Shown here piece after piece: positions 33,408-43,792 of a stretch of 64,000 nucleotides of DNA (positions within the stretch are counted from its first letter, which is position 1; the number at the start of each line of letters is the position of its first letter). Origin of the DNA: a bacterium (GTDB lineage: Bacteria; Patescibacteriota; Microgenomatia; Levybacterales; UBA12049). Location of the stretch: positions 87,545 through 151,544 of the forward strand of contig JAJYWL010000016.1 in NCBI GenBank assembly GCA_021791545.1. The letters run 5' to 3'. The position numbers were made by a program, and so were the translations under genes. A model generated the notes under the pieces. It worked only from the letters and a program-made list of their open reading frames with translations. It was not told the DNA's origin and searched no databases.

Positions 33408-33433
33408 AACAGGTACTATAATTGGTACCTGTT
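33408..33433 (+). terminator. perfect 9-bp inverted repeat (AACAGGTAC-TATAATTG-GTACCTGTT) followed by GGTTTTA, between the small peptide gene and the sortase; weak terminator/attenuator
   Basis: Read directly from the sequence. Confidence 0.35.
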
Positions 33434-33439
33434 GGTTTT

Positions 33440-34018
33440 ATGAAAAAAGTATTATCTTTAGTCCTTATATCCTTAATAGTAATTTTTGCAGGAATAAAAA
33501 TAGGGGGAATATTTAGAGATAAAAGGAATGATAATACTCAGATAAAAAATACTGCAGTATCGGTTACTCCTTTTCTCTCCGAGCCTTCCAGGATTGTTAT
33601 TCCTAAAATAAATGTTGATGCAAATATTGAAAGCGTGGGATTAGATAATAAAAACGCGATGGATGTGCCAAAGAAGGTGGAAGATACTGCTTGGTATAAC
33701 CTTGGGAAGAAGCCCGGAGAAGTTGGAAATGCGGTGATAGATGGACATTATGATACTCAGACAGGTGCACCGGCAGTTTTTTATTACTTATCAAAATTAT
33801 CAAAAGGTGACGAGATAATAATTTATGCTAAAGACGGTTCGAAAAAGATATTTAAAGTGACAGAGGGAAAATTTTATCCTTATAATACTTTTCCAATACA
33901 ATACGTTTTTGGACCTACAAACAGAAAGAGGCTTGAATTAATAACATGTGGAGGAGTCTGGGATAAAACATCAAGAAATTATTCTGAAAGATTTGTCGTG
34001 AGTTCGGAAATGGAATAA
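33440..34018 (+). CDS. sortase (transpeptidase), membrane anchored
   Basis: N-terminal TM segment, catalytic His (VIDGHYD), TLXTC-type Cys motif (LITCGG), and Arg (ERFVV). The ATG at 33440 is preferred over the TTG at 33422. Confidence 0.75.
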   Translation: MKKVLSLVLISLIVIFAGIKIGGIFRDKRNDNTQIKNTAVSVTPFLSEPSRIVIPKINVDANIESVGLDNKNAMDVPKKVEDTAWYNLGKKPGEVGNAVIDGHYDTQTGAPAVFYYLSKLSKGDEIIIYAKDGSKKIFKVTEGKFYPYNTFPIQYVFGPTNRKRLELITCGGVWDKTSRNYSERFVVSSEME

Positions 34019-34022
34019 ATAA

Positions 34023-34775
34023 ATGAGCGGAACAATTAATAAAATGAAAAATTTTTACATTGGAACTTCAGGTTACAATTATAAACATTGGAAAGAAGTT
34101 TTCTATCCTCGCGGACTTTCTTATTCTAAGTGGTTAAATTATTATTCCCAACATTTTTCTACGGTTGAAATTAATGCTACATTTTACGGCAATTTTAGAA
34201 GAACTGTTTTTGAGAAATGGAAAGAAGAGACAGGCGATGATTTTATATTTACCCTCAAAGGACCAAGGTTAATCACTCATACAAAGAAGTTAAATGATAT
34301 TGATGAAAGTTTAGGGATATTCTTGGGGAATACGGAAGGTTTAGGTAAAAAGTTGAATATGATTTTATGGCAATTCCCTCCAAGTTTTAAGTGTGAAACA
34401 GAAACGTTAGGCAGATTAAAAGAATTTAGAAATAAGCTCCCAAAAAACATAAGACAAGCTTTTGAGTTTAGGCATAAATCTTGGTATGAAACTAATATGA
34501 AAGAAGAATTACAAAAAAATAAAATAAATATTGTTATTGCCCAATCTAAAAGATTTCCTGAAGAAAAGAACATAAACGGAGACTTTTATTACATAAGATT
34601 TCATGGACCTCAAAGACTGTATTCTTCATCTTATTCTCCTAAAGAACTTTTGGAGTGGGCTAACTTTGTAAAGAACGAAACAGATAATAAAGATGTTTAT
34701 TGTTACTTTAATAATGATGTTAGGGGATTTGCAGTAAGAAATGCTAAAGAGCTTAGTGCGTTAGTTATTTCTTAA
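34023..34775 (+). CDS. DUF72 (YecE-like) family protein
   Basis: The N-terminal FYIGTSGYNYKHW and the overall pattern are typical of DUF72. Confidence 0.7.
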   Translation: MSGTINKMKNFYIGTSGYNYKHWKEVFYPRGLSYSKWLNYYSQHFSTVEINATFYGNFRRTVFEKWKEETGDDFIFTLKGPRLITHTKKLNDIDESLGIFLGNTEGLGKKLNMILWQFPPSFKCETETLGRLKEFRNKLPKNIRQAFEFRHKSWYETNMKEELQKNKINIVIAQSKRFPEEKNINGDFYYIRFHGPQRLYSSSYSPKELLEWANFVKNETDNKDVYCYFNNDVRGFAVRNAKELSALVIS

Positions 34776-37226
34776 TTTAATCCTTTCATTTATTTGAAGT
34801 TTTTCTAATGCTATCGCCAGATCTGATTCCTCATCTAGTACGGGTGACCAAATATCGCCTATTTTTTCAAGTCTTTCAAATATGTTTTCAATATTAAAAT
34901 CTTTTGGGTTAAGACCTATCTTTACTTCTTCCCATCTTAGTGGTGTCGATACAGATGCTTTTTCAACAGGCTTAAGGCTATATGGCGCAGCAATTGTTTG
35001 TCCATCTCTATTCTGTAGGAAATCAAGATAAACTTTTTTCTTTCTGTTTTGTGGATTTCTTTCAACGCTAGTGAAACTGGGAATTTTTCTATGAATTATT
35101 TTGCATAAAATTTCGGCAAATTGTCTGCTTTGTTTGAACGAATATCTTGATTTCAATGGAACGAAAATATGAAGTCCTGTTGCTCCCGATGTTTTACAAT
35201 AACTATTAAGGCCCACTGCGTCTAGGATTTCTTTACTCCTTATGGCTGTTTCAACTACATAATCAAAAGATATGTCGAGTGGATCAAGGTCTATTACCAG
35301 ATAATCTGGTTTATCCAGACTGATAATTCTTGAAAACCATGGATTTATCTCAATGCATCCGAGATTTGCCATATAGACCAGAGTTTCTTTGTTTTGACAA
35401 ATTATGTAATTAATATTTTTTTCTTCCGACCCGGAATAAATGTCTTTAGTTTCAATCCATTTAGGAAAAAGTCCTCTTGTATCTTTTTGCCAGAATTTTT
35501 CTCCATTAATCCCATTTGGAAATCTATGAAGATTTTCAGGTCGATCTTTAAGGTAGGGAAGGATATAGGGCGAAATTTTATAGTAAAATTTTACGAGGTC
35601 TCTTTTGGTATAACCATCAGTTGGCCAATAAGTTTTTTCAAGATTAGAAAGTTTAAAATTTATCTTTTCGTCTTTTACGGTTTTTGCATTAACTGCTTTT
35701 TCTTTTCTTACGTTTTTTGGATCAAGGTCTTCCCTAAATCCTAAAAATTTAGGCTGACGCATTACTCCTTCATTTGTCCATTCTGTAAACTCCACCTCGC
35801 AAACAATAAGGGGTTTAATCCATGTAACCGGCATATCGGTTTTGGGAGGGCTTAAAAACGGACTTTCTTTTTGGCTAAGGTTTTCAAGCTTTTCTCCAAT
35901 TTCTTTCAATTCTGTATCGTTAAATCCTCCTCCCGAATTCCCTATATATATAAAATTTTTTTCATCATCATAGACACCAAGAATAAGAGAACCAAAGTAT
36001 TTTCTTGAACCACGTGGTTTAGTAAATCCTCCTATTACGGCTTCTTGTTGAAGGCGGCTTTTTATTTTTACCCAGTCTTCTGTTCTTTTTCCCTCTAAAT
36101 ATCTACTTTCCAAATTTTTTCCTATTATTCCCTCAAGTTTTTGTTTTGCTGCGGCATTAAAAAATGAAACTCCTCTTTCACTAATGAAATCGCTAATTTT
36201 TATGTTAGGAAGGTTGGGAAGTACATTCTTTAGTATGTCTTTCCTTTTATATAAAGGAAGATTTGTTAGATCAGAATCTTTGAAATATAGAATATCGAAT
36301 ATGTAATATACTAAATTTCCTTTTTCGGATCTTACAAAATTTTGAAGAAGCTGAAAACTTGATTTCCCATTTTTATCTAAGACTACGACTTCACCGTCCA
36401 AAATCATGTTTTCTTTTATTTCCTTTAAAGATTCTTGAATAGGTTTAAATTTTTCGTTAAAAGAAATATTATTTCTTGAAAGTAAGTTTGCCTTTCCATT
36501 ATTTATTACAGAAATTATCCTATAACCGTCCCATTTAATTTCAAATATCCAATTTCTGTTGTCAAAAGGATTTTTTATGAGGGTTGAAAGCATGGGCTTG
36601 ATAAAATCAGGCATTTTCTTTTTTGTAGCTCCGTCTAAATTTAGCGATTCTTTTGGTTTTTCTCCATTTTTTATTTCGTCCATACTTCTTCCGGTTTTTA
36701 CAGAAAGGTCCTGTTTTATGAGTTCATCTTCGTTTGCAAATTCATCTTTTCCTTTCATCAGCATCCATGAATTTTCGGAAGTATTTATTTTAAATAAGTG
36801 ATATTCCCCCTTAATTTTATTGCCGTTTAAGATTATCTTAAGATTTCCTTTTTCAAGTTCATCCAGTAATGTTTTCCCAATATCTCCCTTTGTCTCCAGC
36901 GGCATATAATTGCCCTGGTCCCAAACCATTACTGTACCCGCCCCATAATTTCTTTTTGGAATTGTTCCTTCGAAATCTCTGTAGTCGTACGGATGGTCTT
37001 CCACCATCATTGCGAGCCTTTTTATATTGGGATCGGAGGATGGTCCCTTGGGTATTGCCCAACTTTTGAGAACTCCTTCCATTTCCAAGCGGAAATCGTA
37101 GTGAAGATGAGAAGCTTGGTGTTTTTGAATAACAAATCTTAGGACACCCTTATTTTTTGTTGGTTTTCCTTGTGGTTCGGGCGTTTCATCAAATCTTCTT
37201 TTTTCATTATATTTGGCTAGGCTCAT
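34761..37226 (-). CDS. ligD: ATP-dependent DNA ligase D (NHEJ) with phosphoesterase, ligase and primase-polymerase domains
   Basis: N-terminal PE domain (RFVIQKHQASHLHYDFRLE). Ligase motif I KxDG (EIKWDGYR). C-terminal LigD polymerase domain. Confidence 0.85.
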   Translation of the reverse strand: MSLAKYNEKRRFDETPEPQGKPTKNKGVLRFVIQKHQASHLHYDFRLEMEGVLKSWAIPKGPSSDPNIKRLAMMVEDHPYDYRDFEGTIPKRNYGAGTVMVWDQGNYMPLETKGDIGKTLLDELEKGNLKIILNGNKIKGEYHLFKINTSENSWMLMKGKDEFANEDELIKQDLSVKTGRSMDEIKNGEKPKESLNLDGATKKKMPDFIKPMLSTLIKNPFDNRNWIFEIKWDGYRIISVINNGKANLLSRNNISFNEKFKPIQESLKEIKENMILDGEVVVLDKNGKSSFQLLQNFVRSEKGNLVYYIFDILYFKDSDLTNLPLYKRKDILKNVLPNLPNIKISDFISERGVSFFNAAAKQKLEGIIGKNLESRYLEGKRTEDWVKIKSRLQQEAVIGGFTKPRGSRKYFGSLILGVYDDEKNFIYIGNSGGGFNDTELKEIGEKLENLSQKESPFLSPPKTDMPVTWIKPLIVCEVEFTEWTNEGVMRQPKFLGFREDLDPKNVRKEKAVNAKTVKDEKINFKLSNLEKTYWPTDGYTKRDLVKFYYKISPYILPYLKDRPENLHRFPNGINGEKFWQKDTRGLFPKWIETKDIYSGSEEKNINYIICQNKETLVYMANLGCIEINPWFSRIISLDKPDYLVIDLDPLDISFDYVVETAIRSKEILDAVGLNSYCKTSGATGLHIFVPLKSRYSFKQSRQFAEILCKIIHRKIPSFTSVERNPQNRKKKVYLDFLQNRDGQTIAAPYSLKPVEKASVSTPLRWEEVKIGLNPKDFNIENIFERLEKIGDIWSPVLDEESDLAIALEKLQINERIKLRNN

Positions 37227-38026
37227 GTTTGATTGTATATTCTTTTTGGTTCTTCTTTTTCTTTTTCTTGTTCAAGACTTTTCTTTAAAAGCGCCATCAA
37301 ATCCGTTACGTTGGATGTTTCCTGGATAGTTTCTTCTTTGGCTGTTATTTTTTCTCCTTTCGCTTTTTCGTCTATTAGTTTTTTCAAATCTTCAGTATAG
37401 GTATCATGAAATTCTTCGGGCTTAAAATCTCCGCTTAATTGGTTTATTAAGGCAAGAGCCATTTCAATCTCTTTATCGCTAACCTCAAGGTTTGGTGCCT
37501 TAATTTCTTTTGCATCTTTTATCTCGCTTTGAAATCTCATTTGATTTAGGACGATAACATTGTCTAGGGGTTTTATGATTCCCAGCCTTTGTCTGGTTCT
37601 TATGACAAATTTTGCTATCCCTACTTTCTTACTTTTTCTTAAAGCTTCTATCATTAGAGAGTATGCTTTTTGAGCAGATTTGTCGGGTTCGAGATAATAG
37701 GGTTTCTCGTAGTAAACAGAATCTATTTCACCCTCATTTACAAACTCCAGCACATCTATTGTTTTAGTTTTTTTGACGTTAGCTTTAATAAAATCATCTT
37801 GTTGTAATATTACATAATCTCCTTTTTCATATTCATAACCTTTTACAAGTTCGTTATAGGGAACTTCTTTTTCTTCGGTTTTACACACTTTCGCATATCT
37901 AATGGGGGAATAGTCTTTCTTATGAAGAAGATCAAAATCCAAACCCTCATCTTTCGAAGCGGTATACATTTTTATGGGAATATTAACGAGCCCGAAACTT
38001 AAAGCTCCTGACCATATAGCTCTCAT
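37223..38026 (-). CDS. ku: Ku protein (NHEJ DNA end-binding)
   Basis: MRAIWSGALSFGLVNIPIKMY N-terminus is typical of bacterial Ku. Its stop overlaps the ligD start (operon). Confidence 0.85.
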   Translation of the reverse strand: MRAIWSGALSFGLVNIPIKMYTASKDEGLDFDLLHKKDYSPIRYAKVCKTEEKEVPYNELVKGYEYEKGDYVILQQDDFIKANVKKTKTIDVLEFVNEGEIDSVYYEKPYYLEPDKSAQKAYSLMIEALRKSKKVGIAKFVIRTRQRLGIIKPLDNVIVLNQMRFQSEIKDAKEIKAPNLEVSDKEIEMALALINQLSGDFKPEEFHDTYTEDLKKLIDEKAKGEKITAKEETIQETSNVTDLMALLKKSLEQEKEKEEPKRIYNQT

Positions 38027-38139
38027 GGGTCGGATTATCGATTTTTTCTAAGAATTTAGATTTAGATTGCTGTATGAGTTTTGTAAGATTCTTACGGCCT
38101 TTTTATTAATTTTTGTCAAAAATTTTGTAGTCTAGACTC

Positions 38140-38253
38140 ATGACTGAGACAGCTGAAGAAAATCCTCCGGTAACTAAAGGGATGGGTTGCGCTCCTGTTC
38201 TGTTAATTTTATTGCTGCCTCTTTTGTTAATTCTTATCATTTTGAAATTTTAA
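38140..38253 (+). CDS. unannotated 37-aa single-TM peptide (MTETAEENPPVTKGMGCAPVLLILLLPLLLILIILKF)
   Basis: Shares an NPP-Gly-rich-TM organisation with the 62-aa peptide at 38534. It is preceded by a TTGTCA...TAGACT promoter-like sequence with almost no leader. Confidence 0.3.
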   Translation: MTETAEENPPVTKGMGCAPVLLILLLPLLLILIILKF

Positions 38254-38318
38254 CTCTTTCAAAAGTCTTACAGTTTTTAAACCCAAAATATTTTCTTAAG
38301 TCCTATATATGTTCTACT

Positions 38319-38531
38319 ATGTCAAGGATAAATTACAAAAGCCAGCCAAATATTTTCCATTCATTACTTGCTTCATTGGGAGCGATTCTTTTTGGGATAA
38401 CAATTCAATTTATAAGTTTATATTTTTTTGATTTTTTGCAAAACGTGTCTTATCTTCCTTTTTTTTCCGGAATAATCTTTTTTTCGATAGTAATGTCTTT
38501 TCTTGTATACGGTTTTAAGGGGGTGAGATAG
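38319..38531 (+). CDS. small 2-TM membrane protein (70 aa)
   Basis: Internal Met start of the 38187..38531 track ORF. The longer start would overlap the 37-aa peptide gene. Confidence 0.3.
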   Translation: MSRINYKSQPNIFHSLLASLGAILFGITIQFISLYFFDFLQNVSYLPFFSGIIFFSIVMSFLVYGFKGVR

Positions 38532-38533
38532 TT

Positions 38534-38722
38534 ATGGCAACCGTAGTAAATAATCCTCCGGCAGGATCTAATAATGGATTCGGTTTTTTGCTTGGAGTAC
38601 TGGTGTTATTGGTAGTAATTGCTTTGTTTTTTATTTATGGACTTCCGAGAATTATTCCCCAGTATTTCGGCGGAGTTCAGGTCAATGTTCCCAAAAGCGT
38701 TGATGTTCATGTTTCCAAATAA
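38534..38722 (+). CDS. small single-TM membrane peptide (62 aa)
   Basis: The sequence MATVVNNPPAGSNNGFGFLLGVLVLLVVIALFF resembles the 37-aa peptide upstream and suggests a paralog. Confidence 0.4.
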   Translation: MATVVNNPPAGSNNGFGFLLGVLVLLVVIALFFIYGLPRIIPQYFGGVQVNVPKSVDVHVSK

Positions 38723-38746
38723 AATAAAATGAGATAAAATTAAATA

Positions 38747-39085
38747 GTGAATATATTAGTCAGTCTCATAATCAATGCAATTGTTATTTTTGTTACCGCA
38801 AATATATTACCCGGAGTGCATATTGCCGACTTTCAAACTGCTTTAATAGCAGCAGTTGTCTTGGGAGTAATTAATACTCTTTTGAAACCCATCCTTATGT
38901 TTTTGACCCTCCCCATTACAATTTTGACTTTGGGACTTTTTACTTTGATCATAAACGGTCTTTTAGTTTTATTGGCGACTCATATTGTTCCCGGTTTTCG
39001 AGTTGACGGATTTTTGTGGGCAATAATATTTAGCATAGTCGTTTCAATAATAAATGCCGTTGTTAACAAATTTCCCCTCAAATAA
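38747..39085 (+). CDS. phage holin 4_2-like (PF04020-like) 4-TM membrane protein
   Basis: The LPGVHIADF...LLKPILMFLTLPITILTLGLF...VPGFRVDGF pattern is typical of this family. Confidence 0.5.
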   Translation: MNILVSLIINAIVIFVTANILPGVHIADFQTALIAAVVLGVINTLLKPILMFLTLPITILTLGLFTLIINGLLVLLATHIVPGFRVDGFLWAIIFSIVVSIINAVVNKFPLK

Positions 39086-39123: not shown

Positions 39124-39669
39124 ATGCAAAAAATTGCTCCGGCAGCTATAGTGGTATTAGTAGTTGCACTTGGGATATTAGGAGTTTATTATCTTTCTAC
39201 TCAAAATTTTCAAACGCAATCTTTGGAGTCGATAATGAATAACAGAAAACCAACAGATCAACCTTTTCAAACGATAACTCCTGTAGCTTCAAACCCTACA
39301 CCTACGGGTCCTGTTGTTACTCCAATCTCATCGGAAGAATTACAAGACGGGTTAAAGATAGCTGATTATAAAATTGGGACGGGCAGCGCCGTAAAAGCAG
39401 GCGATACAGTTGTTATAGACTACGTGGGAATGTTGGAAAATGGTCAAGTCTTCGATAGTTCTCTTCAGAGAAATCAACCTTTTGAAACTCAGATAGGTGT
39501 TGGAAAAGTAATAAAAGGATGGGACGAGGGAGTCGTAGGGATGCAAGTAGGTGGAAGAAGAAGACTTATAATACCCGCAAGCTTGGGCTATGGAGAACAG
39601 GGAGCGGGTGGAGTTATTCCTCCAAATGCTACCTTAATCTTTGACGTTCAACTTCTCCAAATCAAATAA
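39124..39669 (+). CDS. FKBP-type peptidyl-prolyl cis-trans isomerase, membrane anchored
   Basis: FKBP signature (DYVGMLENGQVFDSS...GWDEGVVGMQVGGRRRLIIPASLGYG). Confidence 0.8.
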   Translation: MQKIAPAAIVVLVVALGILGVYYLSTQNFQTQSLESIMNNRKPTDQPFQTITPVASNPTPTGPVVTPISSEELQDGLKIADYKIGTGSAVKAGDTVVIDYVGMLENGQVFDSSLQRNQPFETQIGVGKVIKGWDEGVVGMQVGGRRRLIIPASLGYGEQGAGGVIPPNATLIFDVQLLQIK

Positions 39670-39704: not shown

Positions 39705-40472
39705 TTGATGAGCATTAAAGATTTTTTCTCAAACAAGAAAAGGTTCTACCCGCTTTTCGAAACAAAAAATATTAAAAACCCAAACAGATGGCTTTCTTTC
39801 CCTATTTTGGGATTCGTTTTTAAAGGTATAGTTTTAATCCCCGTATTTATTGAACTGGTTATTCTTGGAATTATTTATTTTATCTGTGTAATTCTATTGA
39901 ATCCGTTCGTAATCCTTTTTACAGGTAAATATTGGAATTTAGCGTATGAGCTAAATGTAGGAGTAATAAAATTGGGTGCAAAAGTTTACTATTATTTTGC
40001 GGGTCTTACCAATCAATATCCATGGTTTAATCTTGAAATAAAAGATGATTTGATCAGTCTTAAAATAGAGAAACCAAAGAATCCAAACAGAGTATTGAAT
40101 TTCCCAATACTCGGTTTTATTGTTAAGGCGATAGCCTTAATTCCTATTTATCTTGTAATGAGGGTCGTAAGCACAGCTGCTCAGATCGCATTCTTCTTTA
40201 CTTCTTTTGTAATATTCTTTACAGCAAGATATCCTGAGAGCTCTTATGAAATAAACAGAGATTATCTAAGATTGGACTTTGCTACAGGAATGTATCTGAC
40301 AGGTCTTTCGGATACATATCCCAGTATGTTCGTTTCTTTAAACCATAAAAAAATAAAGATCTTCCTTTTGATTTTAGGTTTCATTTTCTCCTTTATGAAC
40401 ATCACGGCAAATAACAGAAGCAATTATCATTATCAAAATACAGGCGGAATACAAAATAACAGATCCTTCTAG
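39705..40472 (+). CDS. DUF4389-like membrane protein with internal tandem duplication
   Basis: Two repeats: PNRWLSFPILGFVFKGIVLIPVF and PNRVLNFPILGFIVKAIALIPIY. Confidence 0.45.
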   Translation: MMSIKDFFSNKKRFYPLFETKNIKNPNRWLSFPILGFVFKGIVLIPVFIELVILGIIYFICVILLNPFVILFTGKYWNLAYELNVGVIKLGAKVYYYFAGLTNQYPWFNLEIKDDLISLKIEKPKNPNRVLNFPILGFIVKAIALIPIYLVMRVVSTAAQIAFFFTSFVIFFTARYPESSYEINRDYLRLDFATGMYLTGLSDTYPSMFVSLNHKKIKIFLLILGFIFSFMNITANNRSNYHYQNTGGIQNNRSF

Positions 40473-42492: not shown

Positions 42493-43032
42493 ATGCGGTT
42501 AGTGGGAATAGGCGGAACTTTCAGAAAAGACTCATTCAGTATGGGTCTTTTGAAGGCTGTAAAAGAATTATTACCTGAAGGAATAACATTCGAAATATTG
42601 GATTTTAAAGATTTTCCTCCATACAATCCTGATATAGAAATACCGGAAGAAATTAAGATCTTCAAGGATAAAATCAAACAGTCTGATGCGGTTCTTTTTT
42701 CAACGGCTGAATATAATTATTCGGTACCCGGCAATCTAAAAAACGCAATTGACTGGGCATCAAGACCTTATGGAGATAATTCTTTCGAAGACAAGCCTGC
42801 GGCAATAATTAGTGAATCAACAGGACAGTTGGGTGGATCAAGAGCTCAATATCATTTAAGACAGATAATGGTATTTTTAAATATGCATCCGATTAATAAG
42901 CCGGAAGCGATCGTTCCTTTTGCTCAAGACAAGTTTGATGAAGACGGAAAACTGACTGACGAAAAAACGAGAGAGAAAATAAAAGAATTATTAGAGGCAT
43001 TGGCAAAATGGGCAGAAAGATTAAGTATATGA
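42493..43032 (+). CDS. NAD(P)H-dependent FMN reductase family protein
   Basis: The pattern MRLVGIGGTFRKDS...LFSTAEYNYSVPGNLKNAIDWASRP is typical of NADPH-dependent FMN reductase/chromate reductase. Confidence 0.75.
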   Translation: MRLVGIGGTFRKDSFSMGLLKAVKELLPEGITFEILDFKDFPPYNPDIEIPEEIKIFKDKIKQSDAVLFSTAEYNYSVPGNLKNAIDWASRPYGDNSFEDKPAAIISESTGQLGGSRAQYHLRQIMVFLNMHPINKPEAIVPFAQDKFDEDGKLTDEKTREKIKELLEALAKWAERLSI

Positions 43033-43508
43033 AACTAAAACAATTATTATTTTTTCTAAAAGAAAGAGTCGCTTATGCACACTGTGACATTCCCTGTGGA
43101 ATCTACGATCCACACGCTTCTCAGGTTGCTGCACATACCATTCTAAGAATGACTCAGCTTATTAGTGAAATAAAAAGAGAAAACGAAACAAAAGCAGAGC
43201 ATGATATTGCAAGAACGACTTTTGTAAAAGAAGAACATTCCGATCTTTTGGAAGAAGAATTAGATACATTGGCACACGACTATTTTAAACAGGAACAATA
43301 TGAACAATTTCCAAACTTGAAAGAATTATTTGAAAAGACATTAAAGGCCGGTGCAAAAGCAAGACAAAATATAGATATTGAAGCAGCAAAAGAAACTTTA
43401 GAAAATACAATGCAGATAGCCGAGATTTTTTTCAAATCTAAAGGCGTAGAAAGCATTAGAGTTCCCTCACTTTTTCCCACAGGCGGAGAAATAGTTGTTC
43501 AAAAATGA
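43008..43508 (+). CDS. sodN: nickel superoxide dismutase precursor
   Basis: The Ni-hook motif HCDIPCGIYDP matches Streptomyces SodN (HCDLPCGVYDP). It follows a cleavable leader ending AYA. The alternative start ATG 43029 gives a 17-aa leader and an ATGA overlap with the upstream gene. Confidence 0.8.
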   Translation: MGRKIKYMKLKQLLFFLKERVAYAHCDIPCGIYDPHASQVAAHTILRMTQLISEIKRENETKAEHDIARTTFVKEEHSDLLEEELDTLAHDYFKQEQYEQFPNLKELFEKTLKAGAKARQNIDIEAAKETLENTMQIAEIFFKSKGVESIRVPSLFPTGGEIVVQK

Positions 43509-43792
43509 CAATTTTATCCAAGTACAAGATTTCGGGCCACAGCATGGAACCTGCAATTAAAGATAAGGATTATGTTTTGGTTTCAGGACTTACCTATCTT
43601 TTTAGAAAACCCCAGGTAGGAGATGTTGTTCTTTTCAGAATAAAGAAGGAGACATATATAAAAAGAATAGAAAGGATAAATGGTGAAAAATTCTTTGTTT
43701 TAGGCGATAATAGTAATGATAGCCTAGATAGTAGAGATTTTGGGTGGATTCCTAAAAATAAAATTTTGGGGAAAGTTATCCTTAAAATATGA
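43505..43792 (+). CDS. sodX: NiSOD maturation protease (signal peptidase I-like S26/S24 family)
   Basis: 95 aa with the Ser nucleophile motif SGHSMEP and a GDNSNDSLDSR box. ATGA overlap with sodN. Confidence 0.7.
   Translation: MTILSKYKISGHSMEPAIKDKDYVLVSGLTYLFRKPQVGDVVLFRIKKETYIKRIERINGEKFFVLGDNSNDSLDSRDFGWIPKNKILGKVILKI

Follow-up and report, generated by a model that had tools for sequence, protein, structure and literature searches.

What is the function of a string of very small membrane-protein genes that stands beside ku and ligD in an uncultivated bacterium of the Patescibacteria? The question is raised by a 64,000-nucleotide (nt) stretch of contig JAJYWL010000016.1 (here called the window), in which four genes, named p37, p70, p62, and p112 for the lengths of their products in amino acids (aa), form a string on the forward strand, divergent from ku-ligD. 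An earlier note on this DNA had described four small open reading frames (ORFs) of these lengths as a run of small membrane proteins; coordinates, strand, and Pfam assignments agreed with that description, and Kyte-Doolittle hydropathy windows, which were used to count hydrophobic segments, gave one, two, one, and four segments for the four products. The answer that we favor, with moderate confidence, is that the locus represents a lineage-specific chromosomal operon of six membrane proteins that would serve homeostasis of the cytoplasmic membrane and envelope under stress, and not lysis or toxicity.

The genes are closely spaced. A gap of 2 nt separates the p70 stop codon from the p62 start codon, and one of 24 nt separates p62 from p112. 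Two further co-directional genes follow, one for an FKBP-type peptidyl-prolyl isomerase, 38 nt after p112, and one for a DUF4389 polytopic membrane protein, another 35 nt downstream. Together these form a run of six co-directional membrane-protein genes that ends with the DUF4389 gene, beyond which lies a convergent gene for a PfkB kinase. Judging from the short gaps, the FKBP gene is probably co-transcribed with the small-protein genes as part of the same transcription unit.

The product of p112 matched PF04020 over the whole profile (positions 1 to 105 of 105) with 119 bits, against a cutoff of 28.8, and an E value of 1.7e-34. Its 112 aa and four hydrophobic segments agree with the size and topology expected of this family (about 110 to 120 aa and four transmembrane [TM] segments), in line with the earlier description of the protein as PF04020-like with four TM segments. 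Pfam calls the family Phage_holin_4_2, or "Mycobacterial 4 TMS phage holin"; it was formerly DUF360, and we take the YvlD protein, DUF360, and PF04020 to be one and the same. The Pfam name and the clustering of tiny hydrophobic peptides would suit a holin/antiholin or membrane-toxin module, in which p112 would make lethal holes and the small peptides would act as antiholins, toxins, or antitoxins. The locus resembles phage holin/antiholin cassettes (labeled "MP4 holin" in TCDB class 1.E.40) in this family name and in encoding a small four-TM protein of about 110 aa. Unlike in such cassettes, no endolysin, spanin, phage, or defense gene was found in the ~6 kb flanking the cluster on each side, so that the phage context with an adjoining endolysin or spanin that characterizes a phage holin is absent. 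Among the PHROGs, p112 matched no holin and only weakly (E value of 1e-3) a family of unknown function; it had no match in PADLOC or, by tblastn, among 50,697 phage genomes, and the p62 family had no relative among the 2.9 million viral contigs of IMG/VR. Nor was a structured RNA found that could act as an antitoxin partner: the region 5' of the genes matched no Rfam family and its predicted folding was unremarkable (z = 0.69), and an ORF antisense to p37 is not conserved (see below). By these measures, p112 is a true member of PF04020, chromosomal and without phage association.

Characterized chromosomal PF04020 proteins, namely, YvlD and LiaZ, are envelope-stress proteins, which also argues against a holin. 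The yvlABCD genes belong to the core envelope-stress regulon of sigma-W (PMC3498285), YvlD/DUF360, a component of a Psp-like system, is induced by a bacteriocin in Listeria (PMC12791056), and the liaXYZ cluster of Enterococcus, which includes LiaZ, is regulated by LiaR (PMC7033496). The gene for Enterococcus LiaY, a small PspC-type protein, overlaps liaZ; the two products interact, LiaY possibly as a restraint on LiaZ, which is deleterious when unregulated (10.1101/2023.08.02.551704). This harm and its possible restraint by a small partner could also be read in favor of a toxin module. Weighing both sides, we consider a holin or toxin function very unlikely, and the cluster probably serves neither lysis nor toxicity. 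Of the two possibilities that the earlier note had raised, the holin/antiholin or toxin module thus found no counterpart in PHROGs holins, PADLOC, phage genes, or lysins, while a stress-induced membrane module gained from the PF04020 precedents and from the islands in which the p62 family occurs. The window locus resembles the yvlABCD and liaXYZ clusters of Firmicutes in having a full-length, chromosomal, non-phage PF04020 protein and in having a small single-pass protein, p62, encoded co-directionally and directly before it, as liaY is before liaZ. By analogy with these systems, the six-gene operon probably acts in membrane or envelope homeostasis under stress. The "phage holin" label is therefore misleading here, and for this locus it can be corrected to a chromosomal protein of the YvlD/LiaZ type.

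The product of p62 belongs to a much larger family than its single-sequence search, which returned only 3 relatives, would suggest. A profile built from these 3 relatives recovered at least 518 clusters at an E value of ≤0.01, so that the small-protein homology search proposed in the earlier note succeeded for p62 and yielded nothing of note for p70. All named sources of the family are Patescibacteria (Levybacteria, Saccharimonadales, and "Patescibacteria group"). A family hidden Markov model (HMM) of 120 members scored p62 at 85 bits (E value of 8e-26). Identity between p62 and family members ranges from 47 to 63%, with P8, G15, G21, P38, and P53 invariant, and the recurrent motifs are MAT-x-V-x-NP(A/P), G-x-G-F, the TM segment, LP, and GG(V/I)Q(V/I)N(V/I)PK-x-(I/V)(D/N)V. 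The consensus runs MAT-T-I-I-NP-A-P, an N/S-rich linker, G-M-G-F, one TM segment, and LPY, followed by GGVQVNVPKSIDVNV. As judged from these alignments, the conservation is striking for proteins of such small size. AlphaFold2 predicted a single helix at residues 14 to 45 of p62 (mean predicted local distance difference test score of 76), and a PDB search returned no solved relative. The family has no model in Pfam, NCBIfam, PHROGs, or PADLOC. On the basis of the profile searches, p62 is thus a member of a large, conserved Patescibacteria family that lacks a Pfam or NCBIfam model, and with more than 500 clusters and a recurrent neighborhood of small stress-type membrane proteins, this family could reasonably be given an entry of its own.

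This neighborhood was determined in a census of 94 other loci with a p62-family member, in which neighboring ORFs were clustered and the cluster representatives were annotated with Pfam. The most frequent neighbor was YggT (33 of 94 loci, usually at position -2), followed by an unnamed membrane protein of ~98 aa (28 loci, at varied positions), Transgly_assoc (GlsB/YeaQ/YmgE; 27 loci, usually at +1), a 102-aa polytopic protein (15 loci, usually at -1), and DUF5670 (the lmo0937 family; 14 loci, usually at +1 and +2). A Crp/Fnr regulator lay upstream in 12 loci, and NUDIX (12 loci), LapA-domain (10 loci), and DUF3096 (7 loci) proteins were found at varied positions. The 102-aa and ~98-aa families had no Pfam match. 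Its gene neighborhoods place the p62 family regularly in Patescibacteria islands that encode small membrane proteins of the stress type, such as those formed by GlsB/YeaQ/YmgE (PF04226), lmo0937/DUF5670, YggT, DUF3096, and LapA proteins. Overexpression of a GlsB-family protein raised acid survival 22-fold (PMC12731931). An island consisting of YggT, the 102-aa protein, the p62 family, Transgly_assoc/GlsB, the ~98-aa protein, and DUF5670, the last often twice, was seen in many Patescibacteria contigs (L012 to L019 and L102 to L181; for example, L012:3219-5741 and L019:2466-5604), often trailed by VKOR/TspO and a two-component system and sometimes preceded by a Crp/Fnr regulator.

In the window, too, very small integral membrane proteins are encoded one after another, but p62 is flanked here by p70 and the PF04020 gene and not by YggT, Transgly_assoc, or DUF5670. 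The partners of p62 at this locus are p37, p70, PF04020, FKBP, and DUF4389, no island partner family is present, and no Crp regulator is adjacent. Conversely, no relative of PF04020, p37, or p70 adjoined a p62-family gene in the 94 loci, and tblastn searches of these loci with p37, p70, p112, FKBP, and DUF4389 gave nothing meaningful; weak p112 matches were traced to Transgly_assoc, lmo0937-like, or other small membrane proteins. As far as gene content goes, the arrangement in the window is idiosyncratic and shares one member, p62, with the small-membrane-protein island. Coordinates of the features discussed here are given in Table 1.

Table 1. Positions in the 64,000-nt window of the small-protein genes, their neighbors, and associated features
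Feature	Position	Strand	Product or content
Sortase gene	33422-34018		Sortase
ligD	34761-37226	-	LigD_N, DNA_ligase_A_M/C, LigD_Prim-Pol (Pfam); phosphoesterase, ligase, and primase-polymerase
ku	37223-38026	-	Ku domain (Pfam)
ku/p37 divergent intergenic region	38027-38139	none	113 nt, with conserved block inside
Intergenic block	38052-38095	none	Direct repeat TTTAGATTTAGATT and palindrome GTAAGATTCTTAC
ORF antisense to p37	38106-38240	-	44 aa
p37	38140-38253	+	37-aa single-pass membrane peptide MTETAEENPPVTKGMGCAPVLLILLLPLLLILIILKF; 1 hydrophobic segment
p37 segment			MTETAEENPPVTK, part of p37 product
p70	38319-38531	+	70-aa hairpin membrane protein; 2 hydrophobic segments
p62	38534-38722	+	62-aa single-pass membrane protein; 1 hydrophobic segment
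p112	38747-39085	+	112 aa, GTG start; 4 hydrophobic segments; PF04020
FKBP-type peptidyl-prolyl isomerase gene	39124-39669	+	PF00254, E 4e-37; hydrophobic N terminus, residues 1-28 (membrane-anchored)
DUF4389 gene	39705-40472	+	Polytopic membrane protein; PF14333, E 2.4e-7, two stretches
FMN reductase gene	42493-43032		FMN reductase
Sod_Ni	43008-43792		Nickel superoxide dismutase (within this interval)

The two genes at the head of the string, p37 and p70, are both skipped in public gene calls on identical contigs, in which p62 and p112 are called, and the only public trace of p37 is a 28-residue partial ORF at a contig edge of a relative, L183. No homologue of p70 was found in a word-index search of a 5.8-billion-protein collection or by tblastn in the 94 p62-family loci; exhaustive phmmer against 1.84 billion representatives returned a single match, a repetitive protein of 1977 aa (E value of 2.7e-4). 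As far as these collections reach, p70 is a lineage-specific orphan. p37 matched no family in Pfam, NCBIfam, PHROGs, or PADLOC, and none of p37, p70, and p62 had a Pfam match at an E value of ≤1. It could therefore be argued, from the skipped calls and from the orphan status of p70, that one or both are not genes, and that the gap of 508 bp serves p62 and ku as a long 5' leader and promoter region, its ORFs being frames that are open by chance in AT-rich DNA. The codon-usage log-odds of p37 (0.136) and p70 (0.061) also fall in the zone of overlap, since 8 to 12% of spurious ORFs score as high; since codon usage did not tell p37 and p70 apart from spurious ORFs, it was dropped as a gene test in favor of substitution patterns. 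Both genes, furthermore, lack a Shine-Dalgarno (SD) motif. The missing motif is uninformative because this genome has no SD enrichment at any gene: SD-like motifs before window genes were no more common than at random positions, and 52 of the 67 long ORFs had none. A strong SD-like sequence before p62, AAGGGGGTGA, is an exception to this genome-wide scarcity.

Substitution patterns were compared in close strains that are ~99% identical to the window (L001 to L006, L101, L182, and L184) and in the more distant L183 (~85% nucleotide identity; synonymous divergence [pS] of Ku, 0.66). The 8 variable sites of p70 in the close strains comprise 5 synonymous third-position changes and 3 inside codon 59 (M/T/A), a third-position excess (one-sided Fisher test, P value of 0.018). 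In L101, p37 carries 4 synonymous changes and one conservative replacement, L32F. Third positions are in excess in p37 as well (Fisher test, P value of 0.022), and for both frames combined in the first strain set, the one-sided Fisher P value was 0.0013. The neighboring genes behave similarly, with all p62 polymorphisms synonymous and 9 of 10 p112 polymorphisms at third positions. In L183, the ATG and the frame of p37 are kept and residues 1 to 17 are identical despite several synonymous changes, while 20 of the 113 nt in the adjoining intergenic region have changed. The ratio of nonsynonymous to synonymous divergence (pN/pS) for p37 codons 1 to 28, to which the comparison is limited by the end of the L183 contig at codon 28, was 0.16, compared with 0.62 for the overlapping antisense ORF and 0.04 for Ku. 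These patterns indicate that p37 and p70 evolve as proteins and, so judged, are under purifying selection. An empty gap of 508 bp would also be unusual in a genome as densely packed as this one. The non-gene alternative is accordingly improbable in our estimation, and it is very likely that p37 and p70 are each a real gene; for p37, this is what the earlier note had proposed from the unannotated frame. If so, routine gene calling has missed two conserved microprotein genes, of 37 and 70 aa, in a compact Patescibacteria genome. No major concept is changed by this; the gain is useful knowledge, at the level of annotation, of Patescibacteria membrane biology, which is poorly understood.

The 44-aa ORF antisense to p37 was considered as a gene and rejected as spurious, since L101 lacks its ATG and L183 its stop codon. 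Its third codon positions are in register with those of p37, so that third-position bias alone cannot separate the two frames; its codon-usage score is above that of p37, and it is called as a partial gene at the contig edge of L006. L006 itself, which could be taken for a 214-bp deletion variant, merely has a contig that starts inside the region.

The earlier note had also proposed that p37 and p62 arose by gene duplication. In more explicit form, p37 would be a truncated p62 paralogue, produced by local duplication, that has kept the N-terminal NPP, G-x-G, and TM elements and lost the GGVQVNVP tail. The common layout of NPP, Gly-x-Gly, and TM is plainly visible, with a similar NPP-to-TM spacing, and acidic N-terminal extensions like that of p37 occur in some family members (P0075, P0087, and P0098). 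p37 ends 2 residues past its TM segment, so that the C-terminal tail motif of the family is absent. Under alignment statistics, however, the NPP-TM similarity was not significant: BLASTP gave an E value of 31, hhalign a probability of 8.9% over 14 columns, and the family HMM a score of 3.7 bits (E value of 2), which placed p37 at rank 10 of the 584 window ORFs and outside the family. Of 500 block-shuffles that preserved the architecture, 43 reached the full-length alignment score of p37 and p62 and 256 reached the mean score, against only 4 of 500 for the best N-terminal local alignment. The motif evidence is, moreover, post hoc.

A weak hint of common origin comes from the GC-rich 10-mer AATCCTCCGG, which occurs in the 64 kb only at 38161-38170 (p37 nt 22 to 31) and 38552-38561 (p62 nt 19 to 28), with 0.12 occurrences expected. 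It encodes N-P-P with identical codons in p37 and p62, the rare CCG included, and is not conserved in other p62-family genes; its sharing may be a trace of duplication, the product of gene conversion, or a coincidence. A conserved anti-SD-like RNA motif, CCTCC, within the NPP codons was discarded as an explanation, as it is present in only 4 of 35 family genes. No truncated second copy was found in the 94 other p62-family loci. The sole candidate for a divergent second copy there is a 50-aa ORF, MTKKNVTKLVNIIFMTGYVLIILYFGIPTINRMQSERVSIQIDSEVISDK, at L140:2420-2572, ~300 nt downstream of a p62-family gene and with a weak family HMM score (E value of 0.049). Overall, paralogy of p37 and p62 appears unlikely, and of the proposal in the earlier note only the shared layout stands.

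How might the products of a lineage-specific stress operon work together? A single transcript, starting in the conserved divergent intergenic region, would encode the six membrane proteins, and p70 and p62 would be translationally coupled, given the 2 nt between the p70 stop codon and the p62 ATG. The positive-inside rule predicts an N-out/C-in orientation for the small proteins with one or two passes, which may be subunits that assist or modulate larger membrane proteins (for instance, p112); p37 and p70 would be lineage-specific additions. The most concrete model would be a relation like that of LiaY and LiaZ, in which a small protein acts with p112. We use it as a working analogy and not as a statement of family membership, since the PspC and toastrack components are absent.

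Several findings weigh against the operon as we read it. p62 has no PspC domain, no YvlB/toastrack protein is encoded, and neither sigma-W nor LiaFSR is present near the locus, so that it does not qualify as a YvlABCD or LiaXYZ system; two orphans, p37 and p70, precede the pair in addition. In none of the 94 other loci does the p62 family adjoin PF04020, to which it is unlinked in other genomes, so that a partnership dedicated to p62 and p112 is not conserved. The "stress" label of the island neighbor families derives for the most part from the names used in annotation and from a few organisms. Neither a promoter nor a terminator nor a Crp-type site could be demonstrated at the locus. The codon-usage scores of p37 and p70 are ambiguous, and the L183 comparison covers p37 only in part.

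The divergent intergenic region between ku and p37 is 93/113 identical in L183, with the 44-nt block invariant and its flanks variable. A scan for promoters and terminators found nothing usable in the region, which had no Rfam match and no unusual folding, and its palindrome and direct repeat recur elsewhere in the window at no more than chance level. From its conservation, the region with the 44-nt block is probably a shared promoter/operator and a candidate control element for one or both of the divergent operons.

Such a shared element raises the possibility that the peptide operon is coupled to nonhomologous end joining (NHEJ), with both ku-ligD and the membrane-protein genes induced from the divergent region in, for example, dormancy, desiccation, or oxidative stress. 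This idea would be in keeping with the chief use of NHEJ in bacteria, in cells that are not growing, with the retention of both the divergent Ku/p37 arrangement and the invariant block in L183, and with the presence nearby of a nickel superoxide dismutase (NiSOD) gene with its peptidase gene and of an FMN reductase gene. The conserved block could, on the other hand, serve just one of the two operons, and gene order elsewhere speaks against coupling. The nearest other Ku proteins in GTDB species-representative genomes are 53 to 54% identical (Saccharibacteria, then Bacteroidota and Peribacteria), and at the only other Ku locus inspected, the closest one, in a Saccharibacteria metagenome-assembled genome (L021; 53%), the neighborhood is different and has no such peptides. 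The neighborhoods of the 94 p62-family loci also differ, and no Ku/LigD-like cluster was found among the neighbors there, in a census that made no search aimed at Ku itself. The synteny between ku-ligD and the small ORFs that the earlier note suggested looking for thus extends, for p37, to the close relative L183 and was not seen at L021 or in the census of the 94 family loci. Gene order therefore points to the peptide operon lying beside ku-ligD as a local arrangement and not as a conserved functional coupling, and coupling to NHEJ seems to us distinctly unlikely. More speculative still, and to be regarded as highly improbable, is a broader scheme in which the p62 family and its companions would form a Patescibacteria-specific membrane-stress regulon, often controlled by a Crp-type regulator, with p37, p70, and p62 here as dedicated modulators of the YvlD/LiaZ-type PF04020 protein, all being co-induced with Ku-LigD from a single conserved divergent control region as a dormancy or desiccation program of an ultra-small episymbiont.

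The ku-ligD pair is itself of note as a complete Ku and three-domain LigD (34761-38026) in a Patescibacteria-type genome. Its closest Ku relatives are 48 to 54% identical and scattered among Saccharibacteria, Cytophagaceae, Peribacteria, Gammaproteobacteria, and Chitinophagaceae, and its GC content is not anomalous; the GC profile is uniform, with no compositional island around ku-ligD. The scattered, distant Ku relatives suggest that ku-ligD was acquired by horizontal transfer.

The genes near the string encode Ku, LigD, FKBP, DUF4389, PfkB, DUF1003, FMN reductase, and NiSOD, and the surroundings consist of housekeeping or stress genes, those for sortase, NiSOD, and FMN reductase among them. 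The FMN reductase gene lies just upstream of Sod_Ni, forming an oxidative-stress cluster ~4 kb from the peptide operon, and Sod_Ni is followed by a gene for a small S26/S24-type peptidase, which is probably the NiSOD maturation protease. The shape of p37 (a short polar motif, a TM segment, and a basic end) resembles a stand-alone sorting signal; no sortase motif could be assigned in it. A sortase gene lies a few kilobases from p62 in the window, and sortase genes are likewise found near a p62-family gene in at least two further loci (L019:7386-7955 and L120:1033-1614).

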